Below, piece by piece: positions 687-46,028 of a stretch of 64,000 nucleotides of DNA. Positions within the stretch are counted from its first letter, which is position 1. Each line of letters begins with the position of its first letter. The notes beneath the pieces are model-generated. The model was not told the DNA's origin. It did no database searches and saw nothing but the letters and a program-made list of their open reading frames with translations. A program made the translations under genes and the position numbers. Origin of the DNA: a virus; IMG/VR virus record IMGVR_UViG_3300045988_059857, positions 4,514 to 68,513 of that record, one strand, 5' to 3'.

Positions 687-3600
687 TTACTTCTCAGTCT
701 TCGCCTTCTGGTTAGCCACAACTACCTTGTTAGCATTTTCCAGCACGGCAAGAATCTTCTTTCTCAGTTCACGAATCTGTTTCATGTCCTCAGCGTTGTA
801 GGCATCCTTGCCATCATCCAAGAAACCTTTCTTCAACTCGGAAATCTCCTGCTTATCAAGGGAAATCTCGTCAATGGCATCAATGGCAGCCTTGTTGGTG
901 TTGTAGTAGCCATCGCTCTCATTTGGGGCATTATCTACAATAGCATCATATCTAGTCTTGAATGAGTTTAACTTTTCAAAGAGTTGTTTCAGCTTCATAT
1001 CCTCAAACTCATCCATAGGGGTAGCATGATTATTATAGATGTCCTCAGCATTAAGTTGGTGTGGTCTGTACTCATCACCGCTCTCCTCCGCACGTTCCTT
1101 CTTTCTTGCCTCATTGTAATCTTTTACATCTTTCTCATACAACTTGTAAGTCTTGTATTCCTCAGAGCCATAGAAACGTTCAAGCAGGGAATAATCGCCA
1201 TCAATCTTAGCTTGTTTCTTCAACTTGCTAATTGTGTTGGAAGCACGGTCGTAGTATTCCTTCTTATCCCAGAACTCATCTCCCTGCTTTTTGCTGACTG
1301 GTCTATCATCAGGGTTGCTGACAAACTTGCTTACCAATGGAATATCAGCAACCTTGATTTCCTTCCGGTCATTTAGCGACTTGGTAAGCAAACCGAGTAC
1401 CTGGCTGCCCATGGTGTAAGCACCACCGAGATAAGAAGACAAAACATGGTCAACCACGGCAGGGTTATTCAGGTTGTATCTTGGGTTACCCAAAGCATCC
1501 CATTTGTTCTGCTGCACATCAGGATAGTCGTTTCCGATTGAGTTAACCATCCTAGATGCACGTACCAACCAATCAGGAGTGCCCACGTATGCCTTGGTAA
1601 AGTTAGGGTCATACTTGTTATACTCTGTGTCCTTGAATAATGGCTTGCCAGTGAAGTCAACATTAAAAGCCAACTCAAAAACTGGGCGAATAGCATTCGG
1701 CATCAGACTGACTGCAATATTTCCGTCATATCCAGTAGGGTCGAGCGGAAGCATATCCACCACCTGACCGAGCAAGTCTTCTGCATACTGGCTCCAACTT
1801 TCCTCAGCCAACTCTCCACCCATCATCTTGGATGCAATCATATCGCCTACTCCATAGAAGGCACGGAACTCCTGAGCAAGCGGAATCTTCACATACTCAT
1901 GAGTAAACGGAACCCACATAATCAGGTTGTTTCGTCTATCCCACTTGGTGAACTGCCAGTACTTATCCTTATCATCATCACCGCCCAACAGACTCATCAG
2001 GGCAGCGTTGACGATAGGAACCAGCACACCACTCGCCAACCACGATGCAGTAACAGCCGTGAACTTGAACGGATGATGTTTGGCAAGCGCACCCAATGTC
2101 TGTAAACTCTGTACTGCTGGGTTGATGAAGAGATAGAGGTTTCTAATCATCTGCCAGCCATATTCGCCAGTACCCTTGCGGTTGAAGTTCAATGTTACGT
2201 CCTTGGCATCATTCACAGCCTCATCAATAGAACGTCCATACTGAATAGAGGTCATGTAAACCGCAAATCGGTTACTATCCTCAATCATTCTGTTCAGGAA
2301 CTCGATACTATCCATGATGGTGTGCCCTACCTTTACTGGGTTCGCCTTCCATCTATCCAAATCCTTCAAGTCATTCTTGAATTTCTTCTTCAAGTCTTCC
2401 ACATCAAGCGAAGAGACAAAGCCAGTTTCGCCACCATTCATCATGAAGTCATAGAACATCTGTTCCTTTGGAGTAGCGTTTCCGTTGTTTACCTTATCTC
2501 TCAACTTGCCGTTCTGATAGTCTCTCAGCATGAAACCGAGATTCCAAGAGGTAGCAAGATTCTTTCTTAGCAGATAGTTGTATCTGCCATCCTCACGAAT
2601 AGCGGTAGATGCCAGCGTCATGGTCAGGTCTCGGAAGTAGTTGGAAGGAATGAAGAGAGGTGAAAGACTGGTATAGGCAGCAGCCATCTTTCTGCCCAAC
2701 CAAGCAGCAGCCCTATCCAGTTTGCCGCTCTGAATCTCTCTCACTCGGTGTGCTCTAGTATTGTTCATCGCCTGAGCCAACTGCGGGTCACCATTCACAT
2801 AGATAACATACTCCTCGCCATCCTTCATCACTCTTACCTCATGTTCTCTCTCCTCGCTATGAGTCTGAGGATAGGCTATGTTCAAGCCTTCTCGCTGCTG
2901 GGTAGCATCGCCAGTCTGAGCCATATTCTCCATCTTCTGCTCGAAAGCATCAATGGTAGCCTTCACCTGATTGCTATTCATCTGAGAAGTAATCTGAGGT
3001 GTAGCAGGAATCCACTCCTCGTTGCCGTTGGCATCCGTACTCTTCACGTACCAAGCCTTGCTCAGGGTGAGAAGAGAGGTTGGATGATTCTGAGCCAAGA
3101 GCATCAGGTGTTGCTTCACCCAGTTCTTGTTGTTCAGCAGGATTCCACTCTCTGCCATATTCTCGATGTAAGCGATAGGGTCATCAGCTATAGAGGTACG
3201 TCCGTGTGCGGTCTTCAATGTCTGATTGAACGCACCCTTGCCACCACCTACATAGTCCCATACTTGGTCGGCAGTAGTGCCATCCCATCCACGGAGAGGA
3301 ATATAATGGCTATACATATCACGCACATACAGATAAGTATCTTTGCTCATCATGCCAGCCTTATAGCCATCACGGAGAATCTTCTTTGTAGCCGCATTCG
3401 TAGCATTCCAGAGGTCTTGCACCTCAGCTACATGACTACTCTCAATATCCCTTACCAGTTTGTGGGCAGCTTCCTCAAAGTCTGAGCCACCGAAGAGAGC
3501 CGATAAGCCTGAGTAATCGTAGGCGATACCATTCTCATCATAGCGATAGTCCATATAGGAAGGAGAGTATTTCGTTCTAAGTGCGTTATCTCTCTGTCTC

Positions 3601-6600
3601 CAAGTATTGAAATCCACTCTGCCAAACTCCAAATCGCTATCATTGGTAATACGGTTCATATCGCCCTTGTAAGCCCTGTATGCCGCACTTCTCTGAGCCA
3701 CGTCCTCAAAGTCTGCATCCAGTGACTTCTTGAAAGCCATCTGAGCATCACGCTCCAAGCCATGCTTAGCCATCATGTAGATACGGACATTATCATAGCT
3801 GTCACCCAGTATCTTCTTCATCTGATGATAAGCCTTTCTCAATGGCTGCAAGAACTCATTGTTGTACTCCTCAAACTCGTTCTTTCCTTTGCCGTGACTT
3901 CTGTTCTCGGCAGTATAGGCATCCTCAGCCATATTCAGGCGGTCAACACCCACTTCCTTCATGATAGCTTCCTGAGCCTTGCGGATAGCCAGCATACTAT
4001 CTTGGAAGGCGATACGTTTGAGTACAGAACCACGCTGCAACTCTCGGTTAAACTCTCCAAGGGCAGTATCATCACTCAAAAGATGCTGCTCGTAGGTTGG
4101 AGCAGTCTTCCACAGAGCCATCTGTTTGCGATACTCGTCCACTCTCTTCAGGAAGTCAACGGCACTCTCACCAGCGTTGCGTTGTGGGATGGTTGGTCGC
4201 TGTGCATCCTTTGGCAGGTTGTTATCCTTCTTCCACTGGTTCAGGTCATGCTCAAACTGGTCATAGCGCAAGGAGAATCTGGTATTACCCACGATATTGG
4301 CATTGTTCTCATCGAATATCACGTAGTTGTAATCATCTTTCTTTGCACCTCCAAAGATGGTTCCAGCAGGGTATTTAATACCAACAAAGCCAGCATCACT
4401 TAACAACTTACTAGCTGCTTCTTTAGAACCAAGCATAGAGGAAAGTTCATCGTATAGGTCTTGACCTCTTACCTTACCATCAACACGACTTGGATAAATG
4501 GCCTCAATAGGTTCCTTGCCAATTCTAACCAACTCCTTATTTACCTTGTTCAAATGAGATTTTTTCAATTTATTCTCCCAGTCAAGATAATCTCCATTAT
4601 CATCAGGAATATCCACATCGTAAAGATAAGCAATATCATCAGGAACAGCTATTTCCTCATTCTTCTTTGCAAGAATATCGCTAAGTTCCTTCAAATTATC
4701 ATCATCAGGGAACATTTCTAGAGCAGAAGAAAGGTCTTTTCTCATAGCATCCAATCCCTTATCTACATCTTTATATTTATAGATATAGTGTCTTACCATA
4801 TCTTTGTTATTGGCAGACATATCTGTCACAAATTCAAAACCGCCATTATCTTTCCTTATCTTGGCACGTCTTGTGTAGTCCTCAGCAATATCCTTAGAGT
4901 TGGTAACATAACCACCCCAGCCAAATGCTTGTGAACCTTCGCCTTCACCCATGTGGCTAAAATCGAACTTGTCGAAGCTAGCACCAGTACCATGATAGGT
5001 ACGGATGCTAAACTTAGGGTCAGAGCCAGTAAGCAGAGGAGCAATAACATGCTCGGTCAACTGGGTAGGTATTCCGTTGCCGATGATGGTATGGCTCAGA
5101 TTCTCGGAGAATGGCATCTTGTAATCATCGCTCACTCCTGATACTCTAGCGAGCACTCTTCCCATGGCACGATATACCTTGCCGTCAGGCATCACAATCA
5201 CGTCACCGCTCTTGGTTCTAAGTGTTGGCAGCAGTTCGTCAGCGAAAGCATGAGGAATCTTGCCGTCAGCGTAGGCACTACCCATCACATATAATGGCTT
5301 ATCAATGTTTCGCCAGTCAATACCATCAGCCTTCAAGCGGACATCCATCCAATTAGCAACACCATTCTTCTTCTCGGTTAGGGTCGGGATAATATCAGCC
5401 ACAGCTTCATACCATCCGCTCTTGTGTTCCATCTTCTTTGGCTTAGCAGGGAGTTTACCATCACGAACAGCACGGGCAATCAATCTCTCTCGGTTAGTAT
5501 ATCCGCCAAAGTCAGCAGCGTTATAGACATCTGCATCCCAAGTATATCCGTTGGCATCAAGCGCATCCGTGATAGTCTTCATGGCATCCGAATCCTTATA
5601 TCCCTTCACATTCTCAATAGTCACCACCTTTGGCTTAACCGAATTGATAAACTCCGCTGTACTAGCAGCAGTCTCCTTGTCAAGTTCAACCTCGGCATGG
5701 TTATTCTTCGCCTGAGAGTAGTTCTTGCAGACTGGGCTAGCATGGAAATACTCCACCTCGCCATCAATCTGCTTAACCAATTCCTTAGGGTCAACGTCAC
5801 GGACATCAGCAGTAACGATGTGCTGCCCGAAGTTGTTGCGATAAACACCGCTTATCTTCTCGTCATACTCCACAGCTACCACTGGGTCGATGATACCCTT
5901 CAAGCCTTCCTCAACAAGACCGCCACCGCTAAAGTAGGTTCCAGCCTTAATGAGAGTGCCATCAAGGTTCTTCAATGAGAACTTAGGGTCACGCTCAATA
6001 GCTTCTGCAATATGTATAGCCTTTTTGTTGGCTCGTTTCCATCCCTCTGGTTTCGCCATCATAGATTTCAGAGAGAAACGGATGTCATTATTGTCGGCAG
6101 AGAAATCGCCATTGTTATTCTCGGCAGACTTGATTTGGTTAGATTTGAACACAACGTAATCATCCGTTGTATATTGCATCGAACCGTAATCAACACCATC
6201 TTTGATGTTTTTGAAGATAACTCCATCATATCCATTCTCCTCTGCCCAGTTAGCCCAATCGTATGTGTCCATCGTTTTCCCATCATGTTTAATAGAATTG
6301 TACAAGCTTCCCTTACAATCTATAACAAGTGGATTCTTTGCACTCAGATATACAGCATAGTTATTATAACCATACTCATAGGCATTATCCTCACTACTAT
6401 TAAAGAACAGACCACTATTAGGAAGTCCATCTACCTCTCTTTTGAACACCGTAAACGGCTCATGAGACGTATCATACATTTTAGTCTTTTCATTCCATAC
6501 GCTTGTAGTTTCATCATTTGTTGTTCCATGATAAGCTACAAGAGGTTCACCATTCTCATCTACCACCTTGGAAGCATTCTCAGGGTCATTCTCCCAGTCT

Positions 6601-9600
6601 CCGAACCAGTTCTTGAAGTTGGTAGTACGGACGGTTGCCCATTGTTCTGCATCCAGTTTGGTTTTCTCACCATTAGGAGCTATCATGTATGTTCCGTTTG
6701 CCTTGGCATCAGCCACAATCTTCTCCTTCTCATCTTTCAGCGAGAAGCGGATATTGTCGCTACTATTGATAGCTTCATTGAAGGCACGACTGCGGTCACC
6801 ATCCTTTTTCGGGTCGTAGTCATACATTGGCAAGCCAGCATCCGATATACCCTTACGTACATCATCGCCCAAATTGTTTGGAACTACAGCAGCAGCAAAC
6901 TCGTTGAGACGGAGAGGTCTGTTGTACTTAGTCTCAAAGTACGCACTCTTCAACTCTGTCTGTACTGCATTCTTCAAGGCATCCAGTTTCTTCATAAAGG
7001 TAGGAGTAAGGGTAATGCCATATTCTTTCTTGGCATACTTCTTAGGGTCAGACTGCAATACAATATCGTGAAGTCTCTGCTCGCCATAAAACACATCATT
7101 ATACAAGAACTTGGCAAGGTCATAATAAACCCCATTCCATTTCTCGTAAAACTCTTCCTTATCCTTATTAGAAGACAACTTATCCTTGTTGGCACGCATT
7201 TCGTCTGTAGAATCAACACGACTAGCCAACTTTGCGATAAAGCTACCAAACGAGGTATATTCACTTCCATTGGTCTGCCCATCTGCTTCTTCCCTCATAG
7301 CCTTTGAAACATTTTCAAGAGTCTCAGGCACATACTTTCGGGAACCATCCTTAGTATAGCCACGGAAGATACGGTTCTTCGTTCCGAACTCATCCAGTTT
7401 GTTCTCCTGCCATCTGATGTAATCATCATAAAGACCATTCTTGTTGACGTAATTACTAGCCTTCACCTTAGACAGATAGAAGTCATACTTCTTGGTATCG
7501 TTGTGCTCCTTCACAATATCCCCAACAACCTTCTTCACATCTTTTTTTCTTGGACTGCCGTCCTTGTTAAGCAAGGTTGGCGCATAGTCACGCTCAAAGA
7601 TTTCCTTAGTCTGTTTTCTTACTTGTGGATTGATAGGGCTAGCCTTAACGCCAGTCTCCTTATACATCTTTCTTCTTACCTCCAAAGAAACCTTTTCCCA
7701 AGTAGGATGGATGATGGCATGCTTAGCCAGACTTGTAACCTTTTTATTCAGTTCAGGGTCAGTCTTCATACTATTCAGAATATCCTCAGCAGTAGGATGG
7801 TCACTGATAATCTCTTTCCAGCGATAATCAATTCTAGAATCATACTCCTTAATATCAATACCCTTTTCCTTCAAGTACATCAACTCCCAAGCAGGAGCAT
7901 TATTGTCGCTCAGGGCATCCTTTGCCTGTCTCTCAATCTCAGCCTTAGCTCCACTTGGGTAATCAAGGCTATCAACCCAGTCTTCAAACTTCCGATACCC
8001 TTTTTCACTCATTTCTCGCTCTACGGAAGGATAACGTTGAGTGTAGGCATCAGTTATCCAAGTACCGCCAGTATTGCCAGTACGCTTATCCAAAAGGGCA
8101 GAAGGAGCGATGAAGGAAATCTCTCCAAAGTTGTCGTGAGCAGTCTTGTTGGTATCAATCACAGCCAAAGAAGGATTGGCAAATCCACCCAGCTTCAAAG
8201 CCTTTCTCAGTTTCTCCTCAGTAATGTTATGCACTCCTGCAAGAGTTTTTTCATCCTTCAATGAAAACTTTTCGCCATTTTTCTTGGTAGTTTCAAAACC
8301 TTTTATTATCTTTGCAACCGTAATAGAGTTGTTGGAATTGCGGGGAGAGGTCATAGCTACGTCTCCACTTTGACCGTCCAGCAGCTCTATTTTTGTTGCT
8401 TCATAGCTATATAGCTTTGTTTTTTCGTGTGTTCTTACATTCTCTTTCAAAGTAATCTTTACACCATAGACCTTATCGCCTATATTCACCGCACCATAAC
8501 AACGATGTATCATAACATCAGGATTGACACCAAAATCCTCACTACGTTCATTTCCTACCTTGTTACGGTCAACATGCTGAATAGCATCTACACTCTCACG
8601 AAGTATAGAAGGCAAGACCTTCAAAACGCTCATGTGTACATCTTTGTTTGCACTCTTCTTAACTGCCTTTTCAGACAAATACTTACCAACAGCAGTATTA
8701 CTGATATTAATCTCACCCTTGCCACCAGTTTCTTCATCATTGTAAGTTCTAACAATATTCTTCTTAGCCCATTCTCTTGCCTCAGCATAGTTCTTAAAGC
8801 CATGTTCCTCATCAGCATCAACAATATTTACAGGAGTATTTGCTATCTCAGGAGTCAAGCCATCTTTCTTCAACGAGAACTTGGTATGACTGGTAATCTG
8901 AGCATTGTTCTCATCAAAGATAACATAGTTCATCTTGCCTTCCTTGTTGCCGCCAGTATTACGCTGAGCGATAACCTTCACACCGACAAAGCCAGCCTTG
9001 GAGAGAAATTCGCTTGCAGCCTTGTCGCTACCTAGGGCATTCGTCAAATCTCTATAAAGTTCCTTGCCAGTAGTCAAAGTTGGTTCAAGCCAAACCTCAT
9101 GTTCGTTACCATCAATCTTGTAAGTATCATACATACCAACCTTCTTGTACTCCCAGCCATCAGCCTTGAATACCTTTGGCAGACGCATAATCTTAGCAGC
9201 ACCTAAAGGCTCATCCCAGCCGATGTAGTTGCGACCAGTATCATCAGGAATATCAACAGAGTAGAGGTTGCGTGGTTTCTCCATGGAATCCAACTTCTTC
9301 TGCAAAGCGTCAACCTTAGTTTTTACATCTTTGATGTCACTTTCCTTAGTTTTTATACTCTGCTTATATCTTTTAACCTGTTCGCTATAATACTCAACAT
9401 CAGATTCATACATATCAACACCTAAACCAGTGCCACTTTCCTTTGCCTTTGAAAGTTCTTCCTTAGCCTCATCAAGTCTTGATTGGTACAAATCTACATA
9501 GGATTTTGCATCTTTCAACTCATCCTCCAATAAATCAAGACCAGACTTTGTATCTATCAAATCCTGTGCGACAGTATCATAGTCCTCATTAATCTTGAAG

Positions 9601-12600
9601 TCAGAAGGATTCAAATCTTTCAAAACTTTCAACTCATCTTGAACTTGTTTGGCTTTCATCTTCGCAAATGGGGTGTCGCCAACGGATGCAAGTTTCTTCT
9701 CATCAGCATCTATCATCTTTGATATAGCCTCTTTTGCGGAAATATTAAACTTATCCATATCAAGGGCAACTTGATAGATAATTGATGGAGTTTTATACGT
9801 CATAGGCTTACCTTGATACATCAGTCTTGAAGGCGCATTCTTTTTTGCATTTGCCTTGGCATAAGCCTTGGCGATACCTTCCACTTCGCTCACATAAGTA
9901 CCCCAGCCGTAAGCCTGAGCACCTTCACCGCTACCCATAAAGGAGTGGTCGAACTTGTCAAATGATGCTTGGGAGCCATGATAGGTCTTGATGGAGAACT
10001 TGGTATGTTCTGTAATCTTCATATCCTCAGGTTTGAAGATAACATAGTTGATTTCGTCTCCTTCAACACCGCCCATGATTGTTCCAGCAGGGTACTTGAT
10101 GCCAGTAAAACCAAGAGAAGATAGGAACTGGCTTGCAGCCTTTTGACTGCCCATCCATCTAGATAAACGATTGTACACAAATCGTATATCATCCTCAACA
10201 TTTCCATTGTCATAGGTAGTTTCCCTAGTTAGAGCATGAGTCTTCACAAGGAGTGGAATCATCTGCTCCTTGTCTGCATTCTTGATGTAATCATACAACA
10301 GAGTTCTGAACACAATATCCTTTGATGCCATATCATCAAGGGTCTTAGCATCCAAGCCATAAAGACCTTCAATTATCTTTGTTGCAACCTCATCAGATGG
10401 TTTCTTCTCCCATTCCAGATAGTTACTGCCATTATCCTCAGGAATATCTACCTCATAGAGGTTCTTTCCACTTGGAACGAAATCATCCCAAGAGATACTA
10501 TCCAGTTTAGGCATAGCACCCTCCAATACTTCAATTCTCTTCTTGATACTATTAGAAAGAGGATTGTTCGGATGCTTAGCAATCAATGCCTTTTGTCGCT
10601 CGATAGAACCAGCAACACCTTCCTTGAATGTCCCTTCATGATTCTTGTTGTTCTCAATGAATGAACTCAAAGCAGCCTTTTCCAACTTGGTCAACGGAAT
10701 ATCGCCCTTATATATGTTTCTGCTGCCATAATCTCTTGAAAGATTAGCATAGCTTTTTCCTATCTCTTCCGATGAAGTAACGTAGCCACCCCAACCGAAT
10801 ACTTGGGAGCCAGCACCCTCACCCATGTGGTCGAAGTCAAACTCTGTAAAGTCAGCACCGCTACCATGATATACCTTTAACGAGAACTTAGGAGCATCAG
10901 CTATCTCCTGATTGATGCTGTTCACAACATCATCAGTAACAATATCGCCCTCCTGAATCTGCTGAGGTTCACGACCAGCATTCTTCACAAGTTCCGCTTG
11001 CTCTGCTCTGGTCAAGATACGGTTCACCTTCATCGCACCAGTAATCACCCAAGGGTCAGTCTCAGGGTTCGGGTTTGTACGATACATATAGAAACCATCA
11101 GTAGGCAGATGTTTCAAGCCAGCGAGTGAATGCTGATACTTGCCCGATGGATTGATACCCTCTTGGCGAGCTTCCTCCTGATAATCAACGTCAGCAGCAT
11201 ACTCCACCTCAGCGAAGACAAAGTTCTTAGGGAAGAGAGTCTTGTTGCCCTCAGCATCCTTGCGGTTAAACTGGATAGCATAAGGCACTACACCAAGATG
11301 CCAGCCTGGTCTATAGGCTAACTTACCGCTACCGCCTTGTGTTCCCTTGCCGCCCTGCTTAACCTGAGGTCTTCCAGTCTTGCTTTCTCCTGCAATAGGA
11401 GCCGCATCAGCATCGAGCCACACACCAACTGGAGTAGCAGCACCATTAGGGTTCGATACCATAGGTGGATAGAGTTTGCCATCCTTCAATACGAACACCT
11501 TGTAGCCGATGCCCTTCTTCTTAGGTTCAGGCTTTTGACGGAGAGAGAAGGAAACATCTTCACCAGTCTCGGAGTTTGTCACTTCCCCATTGGCAGTCTT
11601 CACGTAGGCTTGTTCAATGGAGCGGATGATGTTCTTGGTCACATCGCTATACTCTGTACCATAGAAAGCCAACTTAATCTTCAGCAATATCTCATGGATA
11701 GCAGCGAGCAGAGGATGGGACATCTTCATAGCGAGAGTGTGAGCTAAGTTGATGTCACGAATCATTTCGCCTACCGCATCAGCAACAACCTCCTCAGCAT
11801 AGTAATCTCTAGCACGTCCAGAGAATCCAGCATCAGAATATCTCTTCATAGTCTCATCTACCGCCTTGTCGAAGGCATCAGAGCCATAAGAATCAATCAC
11901 AAGCTGAGTCAACTCATTGTATGCAGCAGGGTTCAGGTTCTTGATTTGGTGAGTCATTTCGTGACCGAAGATAAACTGAGCACCTTCCGTGATAGAAGAG
12001 TCAAGAGTGATGAAGATTGTACGATGAACGTTGCCATCGGCATCCTTGGTTTCCTGAATCCAGCCGTTGCCCAACTTATCAGAGTACTGCCATTGAATGT
12101 TAGCACCCATCATCTTAGCCAGTCTCTCGAAAGCCTTGCGAGTCTTCTCGCCCACGATATTGTCAACGACCTTCATATCATCCACCTTATTCTTCTCTAC
12201 GTCAGCAGCACGCTCGGCAGTTGTCTGCTGCTTGCCATTCTCCTTAGCAGAGAAAGGAAGGTCTTCCTCAGGTCTCTGCTCACCGAACACCTTATTCTGC
12301 TCCTCTACCTTCTTGTCAACAAACTCCTTGAACTCTCTAGCAGTATCGCCATCATAGAACATTGCACCTTGTGTCTGCTCATTATCCATATCAGCAGAGT
12401 GTTTAAGGTCACGACCAACATTAAACTCCTCATGCAGCTTCCATAGTTGGTCAAAACCTTGCACGTTATCAGGGAAATAAACTACCTGATTGATAGACTC
12501 ACCCCTATCAGGAACCAACGTACCGACACCGAATCCATCCTTACACATAATAAACAAGTCAGCATAGTTATTCCACTTAGATGTAGGGTCTATCTCTAAG

Positions 12601-15600
12601 CCTTGTTCCTTTGCCCATTCTGCAAGTTCTACGACATATTCATTGATAGGTTCACCTTCCTTGTCAAAAGCAGGGAAACCTAACTTCTCGCCATCTTCCT
12701 TAGCTTTCTGCTGTTCAGGAGTGAGAGTATTTATATTATCATTTATATTGTCATTTATATTCTCATTATCCGATTTATTAGACAAATCATTAGATTCATT
12801 ATCCGATTCATTATCCAACTTCGTCTCTGACTTCGCCTTCAACTCAGCCTTTTCATCCGACTTCGCCTTCAACTCGGCCTCTGACTCAGCCTTGTGCTGC
12901 TCAGCATAGGCTGCATTCTCCTGAGCACGTTTCTGCTCTTCAAGTATGTTCTCTGCCTGAGCAATGCGAATATTTTCAACAAAGTTCCTCGCTTCCGATG
13001 CCTTGAAACCGCTATTGAGTACACCGATAAGTACGTTACGAATATCCTGAGTGTCTAGTGATTCAAGGTTGGATGGACGATTCTCCCACAAGCTATGAAC
13101 GAGCGCATCAATAGTAGTACCCTTGCCATCAGCAGCGAGCAACTGAGTCTTGGCAAAGTCTTCTCTGCTCAATCCAGTCTCTTGCTTAACACCCTTGCTT
13201 GTCTCTGTTCCCTCATAGTTGAGAGAGTGAGCACCGAGGTTGCTAGCCACATACTCCTCAGCAGTAAGCGGAGTTGTGTCAGTCACGTCAATACCAGTAG
13301 AGTCATACAGACGATGAAGGAGAGAACCGATAGTTTCTCTATAGAGTTGTGATACAGCCTCAGCATCATCCTTGACCGCACTCTTCAAGCGAGCGAACTT
13401 TCTTCTTGCCTTCTCAATGAGTTCCTTTCTACCCTCAGCAGTATCTTCCACCTTATCCAGTTGTCGCTCGTTATAAGCATCACGGATAGCGATAGCAGAG
13501 TCATAAGCCGCCTGAGCATCAGCAATCGCCTTCTCCTTGGCATCCTTAGCAGCCTTCTGCTCCACGAAAGTCTTGCCCTTCACGGTCATGTTGCTAGCCT
13601 TATCGAGTGCCTTCTTTGCATCAGACACATATCCAGATACGATACTATCTGCATCCTCACCGAACTGAGTATCATACAACTCAGCAGTCTGTGCGGCAGT
13701 CAGCTTCGAGAAGTCAGGATTGCCATCCTCCAGCATAGGCACGATGGTTCCATCTTCAAGAGTAATGGCAGGAGCAGCAGGAGTCTGTTCTGTTGCAGGA
13801 GTCTCAGCAGATTCAGGAGCAGCAGTCTCGCCCTCTATTGTCGGAGCTTCCACCTCTATCTCACCTCTATTCTCTCCTCTATTATCCTCTATCATTGAGG
13901 TCTCAGCCATCGCTTGCTTGTACTCATCAAGAGACATTGAAGTAATCATGCTTACATTCTTCTTGCTCACAGCATGAGGAACGAGAGAGCCATCACTCTT
14001 CAACTCAACTACCTTAGCTTTAGCACCTGTATCACGAATAAGGAACAATCTAGAGTCAGGATATTTAGTGTTACCATCCTTGTCAAGCACATCAACGAGT
14101 ACAACGTTTCCATCATCATTGAGAATCTGATTGAAATCAAATGAAGGTTGAGTTTCTTCTGTCTCCTGATTCTGCTGGGCAGCACGTTCATTCTCCAACT
14201 GCTCACGCTGAGCCTTGGCAGCTTCCAGTCTCTTCTGGTCTTCCAAGTCTTTCAAGTTCTGCAAGTCTTCAAACGAATAAGGATTCTCCACTACGTTACC
14301 ATCAATAGAGATAGAAGCAGTACCATCACCATAGTCAGCAAGCACCTCATAGGTATGCTCCATACCATCAGCACCAGTCACATTGAACTGGGAACCAACT
14401 TCAACGGTTCCATCAATGATGCCAGCCACTTCCTTGATAGCATTCTCTTTAGCATCAGCTACCGCCTGAGCCTTCACATCATCAGCAGGGAGTTCTTCAC
14501 CCAGTTCAGCGAACATCAACGCATCTGCATGTTCAACGCTATTGGTTGTCGGGTCATAGTATAGAATCATATCATCGCTATTGCTTACATCAATGGAGCC
14601 ATCATCATGAGTAGCAATATTACCACTGATAATATACACACCATAGTCTTCCAAGCCACCTGATGCTTTGATGGTAGAATTACGGACGGAACCACGACTC
14701 TGGTCTGTATACATATCAACTCTCTGTTCTGCCTGATGAGCAGCGAGGTCAACCTTATCTTGTGCATCATCAACCACACCTTGGTATCGGGCAGAAGACA
14801 ACTGGTAGTCATAGATAGCTTGGTCAAGTTTATCATCCTGCCCCGTCAGTGATTCCAGTTCCTCATCACTCATGGCAGATAGCTGCTGCTCAGAGATACC
14901 CAATGCTGCTGCAAGAGTCTTCATCTGGTCTTCCTGCTGAATCTGAATATCATGCTTGTCTGCATCATCGGCATCATGTCCCTCAGAATAAGCATTATCA
15001 ATATCAGTTTGATGCTGCTCCTCAGGAGTTGTAGACTCATTGGTAATCTCCTTGGCATTCATTTCAGCAGTCTTGGCAATATTGTAGCCACGCATCTTCA
15101 TCAGGTTCACACCATAGTTGACAGCAGCATTAATCTGCTCCTTGGTCATGGTATCTCTCTGACGGAGAATATCAGCCAGCACACCGCCCATCTGCTCGTT
15201 GGTTGCATTGTCAATCTTATCCTTGATGTCTGCCCAGTTATCGCCCATAAGGTTCTGTGCATCACTATCAGCCACGTTCACCTTGTTGCGGAATCGGTAG
15301 TACTGAGCACGATTGTAGATACCTTTTACTGGTCGGGAGCCAGCACCCATCGCATACATAGAACCAACAGAGATAGCCATACCACCGATGATGTCGAGTT
15401 GCTGCTTAGCATCAAGGAGGTCGCTCACCTTACCTTCACCATCCAGCAGGGCATGAAGAGGAATACCAATTTCCTCCTCCATCACTTCCTCAGCGAAACC
15501 ATTGATGCCGAACTTCTCCATCCACTTCTTGGAATTGGTATACCATCCACTCTTGCCGATATTCTTGAAGAACTCAGCAGAAGTATTCATACCATGTTTC

Positions 15601-17198
15601 TCCATGAAGTTGACAGCACCCTTCTTGATACCATAGTTATGACCAAACAACTTCTCTGTGTAGTTCTCCACCATGGCAGAAGTCAGACCTTTATAGAGAG
15701 CAGTACCCATAGACTCACCACCCTCATGCAGAAGGTTTCCGTTTTCATCGAATGTACCAAACTTATAATTGCCCTGCTCATCCTGATACAGATTACCCAG
15801 ATGTCGCTGCATGATGTCTGCTCCAGTCTTCAAAGCCTGTTCAGTTCCAGCCATGGCATACGAGCCGATAACATCACCAGCCACGATACCAGTGTTCTTC
15901 AAGATGGCAGCACTCACCTTGCCCATGCCACGCTTAGCAGCAAACTTCAAGGCTCCACGACTGATGCCCTTGGTAATACCACCATAGCCGCCAGTCAGGA
16001 AGAAGTCAGCCATAAATGGGAGACTCTGCCCTGCAATCTTAGTCCAACGATAGACGTTACCCATCTTCTCGTCTTCGAGAGCCGCAGCAGCATCCGCACC
16101 CAGTTTACTCTTCAAGAGCATCTTATCCGAACCAGAAAGAGGAATGTTGTTATCCATCTTTGTCTTGATACGTTCCATCTGCCCCATGGTAGCGAAGTCT
16201 GTCAGACCGAAATCCCATGTCTTGGCAGTAAAGGCAGTATTGTCAAGAGCCTTCAAGGCATCCTCACCCCAGCTACTTGTAGGATATTGTTTCACCGCTT
16301 CAAGCGCACCAATCTGCTCATTAACCAGAGCAAGAGAGGTAGCCAACTTGTTGCTATAGTCACTCTGCTCAGCAGTTCTTCCGTTACTAGCACCAATACT
16401 AGCACCATAAGAGAGAAGAGGATTGCCATGAAGACGATGGTCTTCCGCTATAGCAACTTCAATCTCCTTCTTTCGGGCATAGGCATCAGCCAGTTTCTTG
16501 TCAAACTGCTTTTGAGCACCTTCCTCAGTAAGATAGGTTCCATTCTTATTGATGTTCTCCTGCAAGTCATAGTTACCATTCTTGTCACGAACATCAAAAG
16601 CAGATGGAATCTCACCAGTATCAACCGCATCCTGATAAGCAATATCCTGTGCTTGACTCTGCTCAGCTTCAGGAAGAGAATAAACATTCTCATTGTCCGA
16701 GGTAACGTATGCGCCAGCCTTGCCAGTCTCAGGATTGTAAACGAAATCATCCTTCACCACATTGTTTGCATCACCACCATAAGGAGTCTTGTGTGTACCC
16801 AAGTTCACACGACCGAAATCCTTCTGCTGTTTCTTCTTGCGTTGTTTCAGTCGGTTGTATCTGCCAGCATTGTTCATTGCCTGCTGAGCACTAGCCGATA
16901 TAGCTGCTGCCCCAGCAGAGAAACGAGCACGGTCAGCAGCACTCATAGGAACACTACCGCCCTTCGCTCTTGATGAAGTCCTGCTACGAGGTTCAAAGAG
17001 TGCAGAGTAAAAACGCTCATAAGTAGATGGAACATCAAAGTTCTGAGCCTTCAAGTTCTCATAGATAGCGTGTCTATTATCCGCACCGCCCTTTCCGTCT
17101 CTTGTCAGAGCACTCTCAAACTTATTGTAATCATCAGGCACATCATAGTTCTGTGCTTTCAGATTCTTGTATAAAGTGTATAATGGTCTTTCTGCCAT
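687..17198 (-). CDS. giant multi-domain 'polyvalent' protein (5503 aa): HExxH peptidase motif, four YHG[ST] ART-like modules, C5-cytosine MTase domain, large unassigned N- and C-terminal regions
   Basis: A single uninterrupted ORF with ATG at 17196-17198 and TAA at 687-689. The motifs are listed in the sub-features below. It is the third gene of an operon driven by the late promoter at 19061-19103. Confidence 0.9.
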   Translation of the reverse strand: MAERPLYTLYKNLKAQNYDVPDDYNKFESALTRDGKGGADNRHAIYENLKAQNFDVPSTYERFYSALFEPRSRTSSRAKGGSVPMSAADRARFSAGAAAISASAQQAMNNAGRYNRLKQRKKKQQKDFGRVNLGTHKTPYGGDANNVVKDDFVYNPETGKAGAYVTSDNENVYSLPEAEQSQAQDIAYQDAVDTGEIPSAFDVRDKNGNYDLQENINKNGTYLTEEGAQKQFDKKLADAYARKKEIEVAIAEDHRLHGNPLLSYGASIGASNGRTAEQSDYSNKLATSLALVNEQIGALEAVKQYPTSSWGEDALKALDNTAFTAKTWDFGLTDFATMGQMERIKTKMDNNIPLSGSDKMLLKSKLGADAAAALEDEKMGNVYRWTKIAGQSLPFMADFFLTGGYGGITKGISRGALKFAAKRGMGKVSAAILKNTGIVAGDVIGSYAMAGTEQALKTGADIMQRHLGNLYQDEQGNYKFGTFDENGNLLHEGGESMGTALYKGLTSAMVENYTEKLFGHNYGIKKGAVNFMEKHGMNTSAEFFKNIGKSGWYTNSKKWMEKFGINGFAEEVMEEEIGIPLHALLDGEGKVSDLLDAKQQLDIIGGMAISVGSMYAMGAGSRPVKGIYNRAQYYRFRNKVNVADSDAQNLMGDNWADIKDKIDNATNEQMGGVLADILRQRDTMTKEQINAAVNYGVNLMKMRGYNIAKTAEMNAKEITNESTTPEEQHQTDIDNAYSEGHDADDADKHDIQIQQEDQMKTLAAALGISEQQLSAMSDEELESLTGQDDKLDQAIYDYQLSSARYQGVVDDAQDKVDLAAHQAEQRVDMYTDQSRGSVRNSTIKASGGLEDYGVYIISGNIATHDDGSIDVSNSDDMILYYDPTTNSVEHADALMFAELGEELPADDVKAQAVADAKENAIKEVAGIIDGTVEVGSQFNVTGADGMEHTYEVLADYGDGTASISIDGNVVENPYSFEDLQNLKDLEDQKRLEAAKAQREQLENERAAQQNQETEETQPSFDFNQILNDDGNVVLVDVLDKDGNTKYPDSRLFLIRDTGAKAKVVELKSDGSLVPHAVSKKNVSMITSMSLDEYKQAMAETSMIEDNRGENRGEIEVEAPTIEGETAAPESAETPATEQTPAAPAITLEDGTIVPMLEDGNPDFSKLTAAQTAELYDTQFGEDADSIVSGYVSDAKKALDKASNMTVKGKTFVEQKAAKDAKEKAIADAQAAYDSAIAIRDAYNERQLDKVEDTAEGRKELIEKARRKFARLKSAVKDDAEAVSQLYRETIGSLLHRLYDSTGIDVTDTTPLTAEEYVASNLGAHSLNYEGTETSKGVKQETGLSREDFAKTQLLAADGKGTTIDALVHSLWENRPSNLESLDTQDIRNVLIGVLNSGFKASEARNFVENIRIAQAENILEEQKRAQENAAYAEQHKAESEAELKAKSDEKAELKAKSETKLDNESDNESNDLSNKSDNENINDNINDNINTLTPEQQKAKEDGEKLGFPAFDKEGEPINEYVVELAEWAKEQGLEIDPTSKWNNYADLFIMCKDGFGVGTLVPDRGESINQVVYFPDNVQGFDQLWKLHEEFNVGRDLKHSADMDNEQTQGAMFYDGDTAREFKEFVDKKVEEQNKVFGEQRPEEDLPFSAKENGKQQTTAERAADVEKNKVDDMKVVDNIVGEKTRKAFERLAKMMGANIQWQYSDKLGNGWIQETKDADGNVHRTIFITLDSSITEGAQFIFGHEMTHQIKNLNPAAYNELTQLVIDSYGSDAFDKAVDETMKRYSDAGFSGRARDYYAEEVVADAVGEMIRDINLAHTLAMKMSHPLLAAIHEILLKIKLAFYGTEYSDVTKNIIRSIEQAYVKTANGEVTNSETGEDVSFSLRQKPEPKKKGIGYKVFVLKDGKLYPPMVSNPNGAATPVGVWLDADAAPIAGESKTGRPQVKQGGKGTQGGSGKLAYRPGWHLGVVPYAIQFNRKDAEGNKTLFPKNFVFAEVEYAADVDYQEEARQEGINPSGKYQHSLAGLKHLPTDGFYMYRTNPNPETDPWVITGAMKVNRILTRAEQAELVKNAGREPQQIQEGDIVTDDVVNSINQEIADAPKFSLKVYHGSGADFTEFDFDHMGEGAGSQVFGWGGYVTSSEEIGKSYANLSRDYGSRNIYKGDIPLTKLEKAALSSFIENNKNHEGTFKEGVAGSIERQKALIAKHPNNPLSNSIKKRIEVLEGAMPKLDSISWDDFVPSGKNLYEVDIPEDNGSNYLEWEKKPSDEVATKIIEGLYGLDAKTLDDMASKDIVFRTLLYDYIKNADKEQMIPLLVKTHALTRETTYDNGNVEDDIRFVYNRLSRWMGSQKAASQFLSSLGFTGIKYPAGTIMGGVEGDEINYVIFKPEDMKITEHTKFSIKTYHGSQASFDKFDHSFMGSGEGAQAYGWGTYVSEVEGIAKAYAKANAKKNAPSRLMYQGKPMTYKTPSIIYQVALDMDKFNISAKEAISKMIDADEKKLASVGDTPFAKMKAKQVQDELKVLKDLNPSDFKINEDYDTVAQDLIDTKSGLDLLEDELKDAKSYVDLYQSRLDEAKEELSKAKESGTGLGVDMYESDVEYYSEQVKRYKQSIKTKESDIKDVKTKVDALQKKLDSMEKPRNLYSVDIPDDTGRNYIGWDEPLGAAKIMRLPKVFKADGWEYKKVGMYDTYKIDGNEHEVWLEPTLTTGKELYRDLTNALGSDKAASEFLSKAGFVGVKVIAQRNTGGNKEGKMNYVIFDENNAQITSHTKFSLKKDGLTPEIANTPVNIVDADEEHGFKNYAEAREWAKKNIVRTYNDEETGGKGEINISNTAVGKYLSEKAVKKSANKDVHMSVLKVLPSILRESVDAIQHVDRNKVGNERSEDFGVNPDVMIHRCYGAVNIGDKVYGVKITLKENVRTHEKTKLYSYEATKIELLDGQSGDVAMTSPRNSNNSITVAKIIKGFETTKKNGEKFSLKDEKTLAGVHNITEEKLRKALKLGGFANPSLAVIDTNKTAHDNFGEISFIAPSALLDKRTGNTGGTWITDAYTQRYPSVEREMSEKGYRKFEDWVDSLDYPSGAKAEIERQAKDALSDNNAPAWELMYLKEKGIDIKEYDSRIDYRWKEIISDHPTAEDILNSMKTDPELNKKVTSLAKHAIIHPTWEKVSLEVRRKMYKETGVKASPINPQVRKQTKEIFERDYAPTLLNKDGSPRKKDVKKVVGDIVKEHNDTKKYDFYLSKVKASNYVNKNGLYDDYIRWQENKLDEFGTKNRIFRGYTKDGSRKYVPETLENVSKAMREEADGQTNGSEYTSFGSFIAKLASRVDSTDEMRANKDKLSSNKDKEEFYEKWNGVYYDLAKFLYNDVFYGEQRLHDIVLQSDPKKYAKKEYGITLTPTFMKKLDALKNAVQTELKSAYFETKYNRPLRLNEFAAAVVPNNLGDDVRKGISDAGLPMYDYDPKKDGDRSRAFNEAINSSDNIRFSLKDEKEKIVADAKANGTYMIAPNGEKTKLDAEQWATVRTTNFKNWFGDWENDPENASKVVDENGEPLVAYHGTTNDETTSVWNEKTKMYDTSHEPFTVFKREVDGLPNSGLFFNSSEDNAYEYGYNNYAVYLSAKNPLVIDCKGSLYNSIKHDGKTMDTYDWANWAEENGYDGVIFKNIKDGVDYGSMQYTTDDYVVFKSNQIKSAENNNGDFSADNNDIRFSLKSMMAKPEGWKRANKKAIHIAEAIERDPKFSLKNLDGTLIKAGTYFSGGGLVEEGLKGIIDPVVAVEYDEKISGVYRNNFGQHIVTADVRDVDPKELVKQIDGEVEYFHASPVCKNYSQAKNNHAEVELDKETAASTAEFINSVKPKVVTIENVKGYKDSDAMKTITDALDANGYTWDADVYNAADFGGYTNRERLIARAVRDGKLPAKPKKMEHKSGWYEAVADIIPTLTEKKNGVANWMDVRLKADGIDWRNIDKPLYVMGSAYADGKIPHAFADELLPTLRTKSGDVIVMPDGKVYRAMGRVLARVSGVSDDYKMPFSENLSHTIIGNGIPTQLTEHVIAPLLTGSDPKFSIRTYHGTGASFDKFDFSHMGEGEGSQAFGWGGYVTNSKDIAEDYTRRAKIRKDNGGFEFVTDMSANNKDMVRHYIYKYKDVDKGLDAMRKDLSSALEMFPDDDNLKELSDILAKKNEEIAVPDDIAYLYDVDIPDDNGDYLDWENKLKKSHLNKVNKELVRIGKEPIEAIYPSRVDGKVRGQDLYDELSSMLGSKEAASKLLSDAGFVGIKYPAGTIFGGAKKDDYNYVIFDENNANIVGNTRFSLRYDQFEHDLNQWKKDNNLPKDAQRPTIPQRNAGESAVDFLKRVDEYRKQMALWKTAPTYEQHLLSDDTALGEFNRELQRGSVLKRIAFQDSMLAIRKAQEAIMKEVGVDRLNMAEDAYTAENRSHGKGKNEFEEYNNEFLQPLRKAYHQMKKILGDSYDNVRIYMMAKHGLERDAQMAFKKSLDADFEDVAQRSAAYRAYKGDMNRITNDSDLEFGRVDFNTWRQRDNALRTKYSPSYMDYRYDENGIAYDYSGLSALFGGSDFEEAAHKLVRDIESSHVAEVQDLWNATNAATKKILRDGYKAGMMSKDTYLYVRDMYSHYIPLRGWDGTTADQVWDYVGGGKGAFNQTLKTAHGRTSIADDPIAYIENMAESGILLNNKNWVKQHLMLLAQNHPTSLLTLSKAWYVKSTDANGNEEWIPATPQITSQMNSNQVKATIDAFEQKMENMAQTGDATQQREGLNIAYPQTHSEEREHEVRVMKDGEEYVIYVNGDPQLAQAMNNTRAHRVREIQSGKLDRAAAWLGRKMAAAYTSLSPLFIPSNYFRDLTMTLASTAIREDGRYNYLLRKNLATSWNLGFMLRDYQNGKLRDKVNNGNATPKEQMFYDFMMNGGETGFVSSLDVEDLKKKFKNDLKDLDRWKANPVKVGHTIMDSIEFLNRMIEDSNRFAVYMTSIQYGRSIDEAVNDAKDVTLNFNRKGTGEYGWQMIRNLYLFINPAVQSLQTLGALAKHHPFKFTAVTASWLASGVLVPIVNAALMSLLGGDDDKDKYWQFTKWDRRNNLIMWVPFTHEYVKIPLAQEFRAFYGVGDMIASKMMGGELAEESWSQYAEDLLGQVVDMLPLDPTGYDGNIAVSLMPNAIRPVFELAFNVDFTGKPLFKDTEYNKYDPNFTKAYVGTPDWLVRASRMVNSIGNDYPDVQQNKWDALGNPRYNLNNPAVVDHVLSSYLGGAYTMGSQVLGLLTKSLNDRKEIKVADIPLVSKFVSNPDDRPVSKKQGDEFWDKKEYYDRASNTISKLKKQAKIDGDYSLLERFYGSEEYKTYKLYEKDVKDYNEARKKERAEESGDEYRPHQLNAEDIYNNHATPMDEFEDMKLKQLFEKLNSFKTRYDAIVDNAPNESDGYYNTNKAAIDAIDEISLDKQEISELKKGFLDDGKDAYNAEDMKQIRELRKKILAVLENANKVVVANQKAKTEK
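4281..5015 (-). other. YHGT module 3 (aa 4062-4306), ART-like
   Basis: The module starts KFSIRTYHGTGASFDKFDFSHMGEGEGSQAFGWGGYV and ends AASKLLSDAGFVGIKYPAGTIFGG...YNYVIFDENNANI. Confidence 0.55.
5020..5965 (-). other. C5-cytosine DNA methyltransferase domain embedded in the giant ORF
   Basis: Motif I YFSGGG is at 5919-5936. Motif IV is FHASPVCKNYS, with the Cys codon at 5727-5729 (aa 3824). Motif VI is TIENVKG at about 5601-5621. The motif VIII-like segment is YTNRERL. The C-terminal motif is IIGNGIPTQL at about 5059-5088. Confidence 0.8.
6070..6625 (-). other. fourth, shorter YHGT domain resembling the ART domain common in polyvalent proteins
   Basis: The sequence runs FKNWFGDWENDPENASKVVDENGEPLVAYHGT ... 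GLFFNSSEDNAYEYG ... DDYVVFKSNQIKSAE. The His codon is at 6528-6530 (aa 3557). The family name is recalled from memory and has not been searched. Confidence 0.5.
8883..10001 (-). other. YHGS module 2 (aa 2400-2772), ART-like with coiled-coil insert
   Basis: The module starts KFSIKTYHGSQASFDKFDHSFMGSGEGAQAYGWGTYV and ends AASEFLSKAGFVGVKV...MNYVIFDENNAQI. A central Lys/Glu/Asp-rich insert looks helical. Confidence 0.55.
10002..10889 (-). other. YHGS module 1 (aa 2104-2399), ART-like
   Basis: The module starts KFSLKVYHGSGADFTEFDFDHMGEGAGSQVFGWGGYV and ends AASQFLSSLGFTGIKYPAGTIMGG...INYVIFKPEDMKI. It is paralogous to modules 2 and 3. Confidence 0.55.
11620..12220 (-). other. Zn-metallopeptidase-like domain inside the giant ORF
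   Basis: HEMTH (aa 1746-1750) is encoded at 11949-11963, in the context ITEGAQFIFGHEMTHQIKNL. Domain borders are approximate. Confidence 0.6.
12729..12880 (-). repeat. in-frame tandem DNA repeats / low-complexity acidic segment of the giant ORF
   Basis: There are 3 copies of a 12-bp unit, atttatattNtc, at 12729-12764, encoding NINDNINDNIN. A 17-bp exact repeat, gacttcgccttcaactc, occurs at 12829-12845 and 12859-12875 and encodes AELKAKS twice. Confidence 0.8.
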
Positions 17199-18355: not shown

Positions 18356-19030
18356 CTATGCTTTTACTTTCTGTTCCTGCAATTTCGCACCAAGACTATT
18401 CAGCTCACCTTGCGATGGCAGTCCAGTAGTCTTAGCCTTCAAGCCAAGAGTATCGTTTGGATTCTTGTCTATACCATTCAACTGCTCCTTAGTCACATTC
18501 ATATTCGGTGCTTTCTTCACACCACCACCAGCACCACTATCAATCGTTGCAGCGATGTTGGCAGCAGTACCAGCCACACCAGCAACGGCATTGGCGGTAT
18601 CAGCAGCCTTCTCAGCTTCAATACCCATCTGCTGACTATTCAACTGATTCTTGCGCTCTCTATACTGCTGCTCGATGTTATCCTTGCGAGCATCATTTGC
18701 AGCTACAATCTGTGATGTAGTATCTGCAAGAGTCTTGTTGTTCGCTTCCTTAACCGCAGTAGTTGAATCTTCCGTACCGCCCATCACCGCCTGTCTTCCC
18801 TTAGCAGCCTTATTGCGGTTCTTAATCTGCTCCTGCATCTGGGTAAGCAAGCGCACGGTATCAGCACGCTTGGTCGGGTCGGCATTATATGTTCGGTCAT
18901 ACCATGCCTGATTTTCTCTCTGTTGCTGGGCAATCATCTGCTCCTGCTTACGTCTCGCCTTGCGGTTAGCTACACCACCAGCGATACTACTTGCAAGTCC
19001 AAGACCTGCCCCAATTAATGCTCCTAACAT
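18356..19030 (-). CDS. hypothetical protein with Gly-rich hydrophobic N-terminus and Gln-rich body
   Basis: ORF of 224 aa. The N-terminus is MLGALIGAGLGLASSIAGGV. It is the first gene after the late promoter at 19061-19103. Confidence 0.7.
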   Translation of the reverse strand: MLGALIGAGLGLASSIAGGVANRKARRKQEQMIAQQQRENQAWYDRTYNADPTKRADTVRLLTQMQEQIKNRNKAAKGRQAVMGGTEDSTTAVKEANNKTLADTTSQIVAANDARKDNIEQQYRERKNQLNSQQMGIEAEKAADTANAVAGVAGTAANIAATIDSGAGGGVKKAPNMNVTKEQLNGIDKNPNDTLGLKAKTTGLPSQGELNSLGAKLQEQKVKA

Positions 19031-19060: not shown

Positions 19061-19103
19061 CAAAGTTAATAATACTAGCCGAAAATCATATTTTATCCGT
19101 TAA
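19061..19103 (-). promoter_or_regulatory. late-type composite promoter: TTAACGGATAAAA-N22-TAACTTTG
   Basis: On the minus strand the motif is at 19091-19103, the spacer is exactly 22 nt, and the -7 box is at 19061-19068. The ATG at 19030 lies 30 nt downstream. Confidence 0.7.
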
Positions 19104-45509: not shown

Positions 45510-45523
45510 ACTCACCTCCTTCC

Positions 45524-46027: not shown

Positions 46028-46028
46028 A

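Follow-up and report, generated by a model that had tools for sequence, protein, structure and literature searches.

A 64,000-nucleotide stretch of the IMG/VR virus record IMGVR_UViG_3300045988_059857 (positions 4,514 to 68,513 of that record; hereafter the window) encodes, in one open reading frame (ORF) filling about a quarter of its length, a giant protein of 5503 amino acids (aa) in which a metallopeptidase-like domain of the zincin type is followed by an array of cassettes bordered by a recurrent peptide motif. On balance, we incline to read it as an ejection-type virion protein that delivers a reshuffled effector array and is probably cut into units by its own zincin. The components of this reading differ in strength. 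Packaging and ejection of the giant protein appear highly likely, a counter-defense or host-takeover role of the cassettes is likely, and cleavage at the motif by the embedded zincin is plausible, with chances that fall just short of even. Judged from its gene content, the source is a temperate tailed phage infecting Prevotella/Segatella: Pfam and PHROG searches of the window identify a P22-type portal, an SU10-type capsid protein, a terminase, tail-fiber-like proteins, an endolysin and a Bacteroidota-type integrase, and genome matches indicate Prevotella/Segatella copri as host. Megablast found no DNA similarity to known phages, and relatives are apparent at the protein level only. The parts of the giant protein follow one another as N-terminal tandem unit, N-scaffold, acidic low-complexity linker, zincin, cassette array and C-scaffold (Table 1).

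An intact giant gene

A first-pass annotation, made from the letters of the DNA alone, described the ORF as uninterrupted, and reading of the sequence agrees: there are no internal stops in the frame. A chimera of several genes joined during assembly could be imagined, as public contigs frequently terminate within the giant gene and its internal paralogous modules could mislead assemblers. However, in an IMG/VR scan with the C-terminal 1196 aa as query, which returned 195 related viral contigs, the frame is open through the whole 10-kb upstream flank in 75 of the 80 loci that were retained (88-99% identity within the match). Dozens of independent assemblies have the ORF intact. Moreover, the closest full-length relatives, from other data sets, share the N-terminus, zincin and C-terminus in proteins of 5068-5882 aa, and isolated temperate phages of Bacteroides encode counterparts of 5553 aa (BKO1-TP3 gp55; PQ571269) and 5391 aa (BS-TP4 gp3; PQ571277). 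Together with the portal, SU10-type capsid and terminase genes of the window, these data leave a vanishingly small chance for a chimera, and we regard an assembly artifact as the origin of the ORF as effectively excluded. A size at the extreme for a phage protein, as initially suggested, holds in part: the two Bacteroides phage proteins are comparable, and a complete HMMER search through 1.84 billion representatives recovers full-length metagenomic relatives of 5068-6212 aa.

Many public contigs cut the giant gene at their ends (e.g., ENA contig SRR2193542...k127_5200, and likewise many of the proteins P0001-P0084), and catalogue entries for the giant protein are fragments of 2090 aa or less. 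The full-length protein is therefore systematically under-represented in catalogues. In the chromosome of Segatella copri HDE04 (NZ_CP152346.1), only the first 198 residues of the C-terminal module (C-module) are matched, at 95% identity; this prophage copy may be truncated or interrupted.

Nine cassettes bordered by one peptide motif

The array of the window protein holds nine cassettes in the order C-A-A-LPD3-PBECR5-ART-spacer-MTase-A (ART, ADP-ribosyltransferase; MTase, methyltransferase). Five Pfam families specific to or typical of polyvalent proteins pass curated cut-offs, namely, ART-PolyVal (twice), PBECR5, LPD3, LPD38 and DNA_methylase, and the profile searches proposed in the first pass thereby uphold its assignment. 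With disparate domains in one chain, in a phage carrying portal and terminase, the giant protein is, by these profile matches, a polyvalent protein. The description of that class gives a range of 2-15 domains (Iyer et al. 2017, PMC5512222); with nine cassettes, a zincin and two scaffolds, the window protein stands near the top. The earlier domain calls in the array were also accurate. The three YHG[ST] modules (the A cassettes) are paralogues with 31-62% pairwise identity (E down to 3e-25), the fourth domain, carrying YHGT, is a canonical ART-PolyVal, and the C5 methylase, in which YFSGGG, SPVC, ENV, RER and GNGIP can be read directly, matches M.HhaI (E 2e-5) and HaeIII in the Protein Data Bank (PDB). 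Cassette C has no Pfam or PDB match. Relatives carry cassettes beyond the window's set, including InPase, LPD13, PBECR1, MuF_C and LPD23. As a set, ADP-ribosyltransferases, an RNase, a C5 methylase and proteins without assignment fit early counter-defense and takeover, as proposed for polyvalent proteins (PMC5512222).

The borders of these cassettes share a feature absent from the list of the first-pass annotation. The motif FS[LI][KR] occurs ten times in the giant protein (at aa 1884, 2105, 2401, 2774, 2978, 3485, 3708, 3740, 4063 and 4308), every copy exactly at a domain border, against an expectation of 0.15 on average and 2 at most in 2000 shuffles. All ten copies lie within aa 1884-4308, and the motif is nearly lacking from the remaining ~14,900 residues that the window encodes, those of the two proteins of the same operon among them. 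Across 324 distinct junction contexts in relatives, conservation is limited to positions -1 to +3, reading [KR]-F-S-[LI]-[KR]. The motif is written with all six Ser codons (TCN and AGY) and eight Leu/Ile codons, which argues that selection acts on the peptide rather than on the DNA. A role as a DNA-level recombination signal was considered and rejected, given this high degeneracy and the lack of any conservation beyond 15 nt.

A putative gluzincin associated with the motif

The array is preceded by a gluzincin-type metallopeptidase-like domain whose HEMTH sequence lies exactly where the first pass had placed it. In an alignment of 104 sequences, no variation is seen at H1746, E1747, H1750 or E1803, and 96% retain D1807, a gluzincin signature. 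An AlphaFold2 (AF2) model (predicted local distance difference test [pLDDT], 83; predicted template modeling score [pTM], 0.77) places a three-strand sheet before the HExxH helix and the Glu-bearing helix after it, and membership among the zincins (gluzincins) is predicted from this HExxH helix following a sheet and the conserved downstream Glu. The family has 160 homologues among the 1.84 billion representatives, mostly giants of 2500-6200 aa. Its members give only sub-threshold Pfam matches (M13, M48, eCIS_core and DUF6782), and a PDB sequence search with the zincin region (aa 1601-1884) was empty. No earlier description was found in the literature searched, and the family appears to be previously undescribed.

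The motif follows this family closely. In 43 of 89 members, [FY]S[LIVM] is sharply concentrated 120-160 aa beyond the catalytic His, with a second peak one cassette further on and hardly any occurrences within or near the zincin. As 16 of these 43 members have no array, the site beside the zincin is a conserved core. On the N-terminal side of the domain, the window protein carries a variant junction, PFSAK, and the pattern [FY]S[LIVMA][KRQ] has a maximum close to -100 in 11 of the 89 members, a close subfamily. LPD38 giants without this zincin have 0-1 motifs each (JC1, BKO1-TP3, BS-TP4, Ralstonia phage Gerry and phi349). A reduced-alphabet k-mer search found no other recurrent motif in distant zincin-bearing giants. 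These distributions suggest that the motif is a universal junction adaptor tied to the zincin, for which the literature searched holds no earlier description. Separately, cassette C is the first after the zincin in nearly all relatives, including the distant relative P0115. This position may reflect a functional coupling to the peptidase, in which case cassette C would not be a free effector.

Cassette turnover between near-identical phages

The segments between motifs fall into 28 cassette types, which occur in 63 different orders of 3-10 cassettes each among 70 close relatives with complete arrays. Even the nearest relative, with a C-scaffold 99.3% identical to that of the window, has a different order, and only 2 of 37 pairs with C-scaffolds at least 98% identical share one. 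When the window protein is compared with its relatives, 76% of homology-block starts and 64% of ends fall within 12 aa of a motif, compared to 9% by chance. Measured cassette turnover of this kind has no earlier description in the literature searched.

Scaffolds, the three-gene module and packaging

Only aa ~240-1280 and ~4360-5375 of the giant protein align with the giants of BKO1-TP3 and BS-TP4, and the ~3000-aa middle is unrelated. The idea that the flanks are delivery parts thus gains support: both are conserved scaffolds shared with giants of unrelated middle, and we infer that they act in head incorporation and in passage out via the tail and across the cell envelope. The N-scaffold shows ~25% identity (E 3e-49) with the N-terminal parts of BKO1-TP3 gp55 and BS-TP4 gp3; Pfam searches on tiles of the N-terminal 1650 aa gave nothing above threshold, with LPD14 below it. 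The C-terminal ~1200 aa had been thought to be free of recognizable motifs. This was incorrect, as the region contains LPD38 and matches phrog_14770 (E 1e-141). Of the hydrophobic helices that had been read there, one stands, and it is the only strongly hydrophobic stretch of the protein.

The C-module is found in 338 phage records, comprising Stx-converting (Sepvirinae), Vibrio, Ralstonia (Cimandefvirus) and Burkholderia (Lessievirus) phages and a Methanosarcina virus. Its AF2 model is all-helical (pLDDT 75). Foldseek returned no significant PDB match for it, and PDB sequence searches with the N- and C-terminal regions were empty. Its 71 matches in BFVD, each being one numbered part of a protein, come from the C-terminal ends of giant phage proteins, among them giants with LT_GEWL, RelA/SpoT or methylase annotations, and from some stand-alone proteins, including a 955-aa C-module in a podovirus. 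Escherichia phage phi349 (Sepvirinae; locus 5799-14217) has the C-module at the end of a 1797-aa protein located after a 952-aa ORF and just before the integrase. Well-studied Stx-type phages therefore carry a smaller relative of the delivery module, annotated as hypothetical. In many distant C-module homologues (e.g., P0040-P0075), a different conserved block, of the HExxAH type with the consensus TLHExVAHxGLR, lies directly upstream and may represent another peptidase-like domain, unrelated to the zincin, that occupies the corresponding position.

The duplicated unit of ~25 aa reported in the first pass near the N-terminus is present, and the tandem pair is kept in distant relatives that have otherwise diverged, including BKO1-TP3 gp55. 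Because of this retention, we consider the unit a candidate head-incorporation or portal-binding signal. No further copies occur among the other window proteins, and its interpretation as a capsid-targeting copy shared with them was rejected on that ground. The acidic linker contains 12-nt tandem repeats (12729-12816; aa ~1461-1490) coding DNIN/SDNE.

Gene synteny supports a place for the giant protein in the virion. Its gene is the third of a module, as first described, with intergenic gaps of 3 and 29 nt. The two upstream genes are likewise confirmed, but their products are Ala/Gly/Lys/Gln/Asn-rich rather than simply Gly/Gln-rich. The first encodes a 224-aa protein matching Pfam PF24072 T7_gp14 (E 3e-6; 27.7 bits; profile positions 5-178 of 187), in line with the virion-type operon proposed earlier. 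The corresponding BKO1-TP3 gp57 is 52% identical to it and matches T7_gp14 at E 6e-5, below the cut-off. The second, of 374 aa, has no match in Pfam or PHROG and is 31-33% identical to BKO1-TP3 gp56 and BS-TP4 gp2 in the same position. The three-gene module and the capsid protein (60% identical) are common to BKO1-TP3 and BS-TP4, in both of which the giant gene adjoins the portal gene; the paper on these phages leaves the giant gene undiscussed (PMC12694917). The packaging reading is strengthened by the Burkholderia podophage JC1, the best studied of the phages with this C-module, whose gp69, a C-module homologue aligning with aa 4615-5317 of the giant protein (E 5.5e-32), was found in CsCl-purified virions with 51 unique peptides, alongside two proteins encoded just upstream (PMC9144972). 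Support for the ejection-protein reading thus comes from the Pfam gp14 profile, the order of the genes and the findings on JC1.

An alternative hypothesis is that the protein never enters the virion and instead works where it is made, inside the infected cell or the lysogen, for instance to exclude superinfecting phages or in conflicts between phages. The evidence for virion placement of this phage's protein is indirect, and a class of polyvalent proteins without clear context is considered perhaps defensive by Iyer et al. (PMC5512222). However, the shared operon with a T7_gp14-family gene, the neighboring portal gene in BKO1-TP3 and BS-TP4, the presence of the JC1 homologue in virions and the restriction of the C-module to phage genomes with this layout make a non-virion role very improbable.

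Proposed delivery and processing

In the scheme that we propose, the three module proteins would be internal virion proteins, of which the giant protein, as the largest, would be packaged and would enter the host by ejection, either before the DNA or together with it. Cutting at the motifs by the zincin would follow and release separate enzymes. Cleavage before Phe would be most plausible, both because many zincins prefer a large hydrophobic P1' residue and because the first ART strand would stay intact. The freed enzymes would modify host proteins, RNA and incoming DNA to blunt defenses. The motif itself could serve as a universal adaptor by which any cassette bearing it can be swapped, and such swapping would account for the rapid rearrangement of arrays seen between phages that are near-identical in other respects. 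More specifically, and tentatively, we speculate that an undescribed gluzincin recognizes [KR]FS[LI][KR], frees itself and then releases the downstream cassettes in the host, in a phage counterpart of the MARTX toxins in which adaptor-based exchange of effectors is faster than point mutation of the scaffold; we rate this full scheme as somewhat less than an even prospect. Processing as such has been proposed before: Iyer et al. suggested that peptidase domains divide polyvalent proteins into units (PMC5512222).

The main rival to cleavage by the zincin is that the protein is packaged but never cut. The motif would then be a structural connector or β-strand cap in a chain that threads through the tail as "beads on a string," and the zincin would be an effector acting on host proteins. 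The virion RNA polymerase of N4 is thought to pass the tail uncleaved, as loosely folded subdomains (PMC13434306), and peptidase domains are also considered as effectors against host proteins by Iyer et al. (PMC5512222). The position of the motif directly before the first ART strand in the A cassettes would suit such a cap, as would the hydrophobic/polar alternation of F-S-L-K, which fits a strand. In contrast, a cap would be unexpected before folds as unrelated as a methylase, an RNase, an ART, a 32-aa spacer and the all-helical C-scaffold, with no other conserved flanking residue, or, in relatives that lack an array, at a constant spacing downstream of the zincin. Model confidence is, in addition, low beside two junctions, at the ends of modeled fragments. 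We therefore consider an uncleaved protein unlikely, though clearly worth weighing.

A different protease could also cut at the motif inside the procapsid, either an unrecognized phage head-maturation enzyme or one of the host, as with inner-body proteins of phiKZ-type phages. Head proteases are established to process packaged proteins in SPN3US and phiKZ-type phages (PMC10052503, PMC5694885), and several genes between the capsid and portal genes of the window match only PHROGs of unknown function. Against this, Pfam and PHROG searches detected no prohead protease or other protease family in the structural module, the motif tracks the zincin family in position and distribution, and it is essentially missing from the remaining window proteins, including the two co-operonic ones. 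Processing by another protease is thus improbable, and the embedded zincin remains our preferred candidate.

Several observations weigh against delivery and cleavage as proposed here. Packaging, ejection and cleavage are all inferred for this phage from sequence. The motif is missing from its expected place in 46 of the 89 zincin-bearing relatives, and in the A cassettes it runs directly into the first ART strand (FSLKxYHG), where it could be a structural element. The zincin region matches no Pfam peptidase model, MPTase-PolyVal included, at E<=1, and a Foldseek search of its model against the PDB found nothing significant (best E 0.4). For the module, the T7_gp14 match of the 224-aa protein is borderline (27.7 versus a cut-off of 27.0 bits), with no similarity to T7 gp14 itself by pairwise BLASTP, and the 374-aa protein has no BLASTP similarity to T7 gp15. 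A C-module profile compared with T7 gp16 (first 1302 of 1318 residues) gave an hhalign probability of 0.7%, a comparison that did not directly include the N-scaffold and array. The morphology of this phage group is not reported (PMC12694917).

Comparison with known giant proteins

The virions of short-tailed phages generally contain three ejection proteins, and one of the three may be a giant of the "beads-on-a-string" kind, as in N4 (PMC13434306). Like gp14/gp15/gp16 of T7 and gp52/gp51/gp50 of N4, the module consists of three consecutive genes of rising size, the first in the T7_gp14 family. The giant gene holds the position of T7 gp16 as the third and largest, and its product resembles the N4 virion RNA polymerase (3500 aa) in being a giant, multidomain last protein. 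Unlike the ejection proteins of T7 and N4, it carries exchangeable effector cargo and has no lytic transglycosylase or RNA polymerase domain; Pfam gave no SLT or lysozyme match in it.

The homologous C-terminal LPD38 module is shared with P1 DarB and with DarB-like giants of Bcep22-like podophages (JC1 gp69, Bcep22 gp75). Those podophage giants are likewise the last of a three-gene set (all three virion-associated in JC1) and take up a fifth to a quarter of the genome. In contrast to the window protein, JC1 gp69 (4515 aa) has an N-terminal SLT lytic transglycosylase, as in T7 gp16, and an N6-adenine methylase-helicase dyad, and it lacks both a zincin of this family and a motif array. Pfam found no LPD36, N6-adenine methylase or SF2 helicase in the window protein, whose sole methylase is of the C5 type. 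By these domain matches, the giant protein is related to DarB-like giants via its C-module, but its cargo is not DarB-like. The giants of BKO1-TP3 and BS-TP4 belong to the same phage group and share the three-gene module and both scaffolds (BKO1-TP3 also the tandem unit), and the one of BKO1-TP3 is annotated as DarB-like. They differ in their unrelated middles, where both the motif array and a zincin of this family are missing. In the literature searched, neither the gene nor the motif has been described before from Bacteroidales phages.

Relative to polyvalent proteins as characterized in PMC5512222, the window protein shares unrelated enzymatic heads in one chain, the portal-terminase phage context, predicted co-delivery with DNA and predicted peptidase processing. 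A recurrent junction motif, a scaffold-zincin-array grammar and population-level cassette turnover were not found in the searched passages of that description, and the window zincin does not match the Pfam MPTase-PolyVal model.

In organization only, the protein also resembles the MARTX toxins of Vibrio, which have ~5000 aa, conserved translocation-type ends, strain-variable central effectors and an embedded protease that separates these effectors by cleavage (PMC5218395, PMC4453568, PMC6315884). MARTX are secreted by bacteria against eukaryotic cells, carry RTX-type repeats and place an InsP6-activated cysteine protease after the effectors, whereas in the window protein the zincin precedes the array, virion delivery is proposed and there is no homology. 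Pfam, PHROG and PDB sequence searches found no MARTX domains in it.

In 2017, polyvalent proteins were predicted to be injected with DNA and cut by embedded peptidases, and no cleavage signal or protease-site pair was found in the literature searched. The locus combines a conserved catalytic signature with a short site that can be counted at each domain border, a pairing open to direct test, in an abundant phage group (195 related viral contigs) of the major human gut genus Prevotella/Segatella. The 28 motif-bounded cassette types form a catalogue of candidate counter-defense effectors, several without known function, and their turnover, with 63 orders in 70 phages, would record an arms race as it occurs in nature. 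Should the adaptor function as we propose, proteins of choice could also be loaded by means of it into phage particles and so be carried to gut bacteria.

Feature coordinates and neighboring genes

Table 1. Positions of the giant ORF, its parts and the upstream module in the window
Feature	Residues (aa)	Nucleotides	Strand	Remarks
Candidate Bacteroidota-type -7 box TAACTTTG		19068-19061	minus	31 nt upstream of module gene 1; sequence read
Module gene 1		18356..19030	minus	224 aa; T7_gp14-family internal virion protein (profile match); Gly-rich hydrophobic N-terminus
Module gene 2		17228..18352	minus	374 aa; Lys/Ala/Gln-rich; gp15 position
Giant ORF		687..17198	minus	ATG start; 5503 aa, 617 kDa, pI 5.2
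N-terminal tandem pair, ~25-aa units	7-31, 44-67	16998..17180	minus	consensus LYxxLxxxxYDVPxxYxxF; sequence read
N-scaffold	~240-1280	13359..16481	minus	conserved in P0085-P0106
Acidic low-complexity linker	~1290-1648	12255..13331	minus	between N-scaffold and zincin
Variant junction PFSAK	1648-1652	12243..12257	minus	97 residues before catalytic His
Gluzincin-type metallopeptidase-like domain	1649-1883	11550..12254	minus	conserved signature and AF2 model
HEMTH	1746-1750	11949-11963	minus	sequence read
Third-ligand candidate E1803	1803	11790-11792	minus	invariant in alignment
Cassette C	1884-2104	10887..11549	minus	starts SFSLR; phrog_30118 E 2e-33
Two YHGS cassettes A	2105-2400, 2401-2773	8880..10886	minus	ART-PolyVal/DUF3990-like paralogues
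LPD3 cassette	2774-2977	8268..8879	minus	Pfam LPD3 E 2e-10
PBECR5 cassette (predicted RNase)	2978-3484	6747..8267	minus	Pfam PBECR5 E 6.5e-19
ART-PolyVal cassette	3485-3707	6078..6746	minus	Pfam E 3e-21; YHGT at aa 3556
32-aa spacer cassette	3708-3739	5982..6077	minus	motif on both sides
C5 cytosine DNA methyltransferase cassette	3740-4062	5013..5981	minus	Pfam DNA_methylase E 1e-28
Third A cassette, YHGT	4063-4307	4278..5012	minus	paralogue of other A cassettes
C-scaffold	4308-5503	690..4277	minus	all-alpha; starts RFSLR
Hydrophobic helix	5045-5072	1983-2066	minus	in C-scaffold
LPD38 in C-scaffold	5078-5289	1332-1967	minus	Pfam E 1e-22

The late promoter that had been placed at 19061-19103, upstream of the operon, is borne out as to a candidate -7 box, but no clean -33 TTTG was found upstream of the module and a sigma-70 promoter scan there stayed at chance level. 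Elsewhere in the window, a single tRNA gene, tRNA-Met (27250-27327, plus strand), lies in the early/regulatory region. Just downstream of the endolysin gene (46922-47470) are two adjacent paralogous genes (44955-45515 and 45524-46114, minus strand), both matching phrog_19255. Two large ORFs on the plus strand probably encode tail or receptor-binding proteins: one of 1175 aa (59962-63489) without a match and one of 886 aa (41294-43954) that matches phrog_32516 only.

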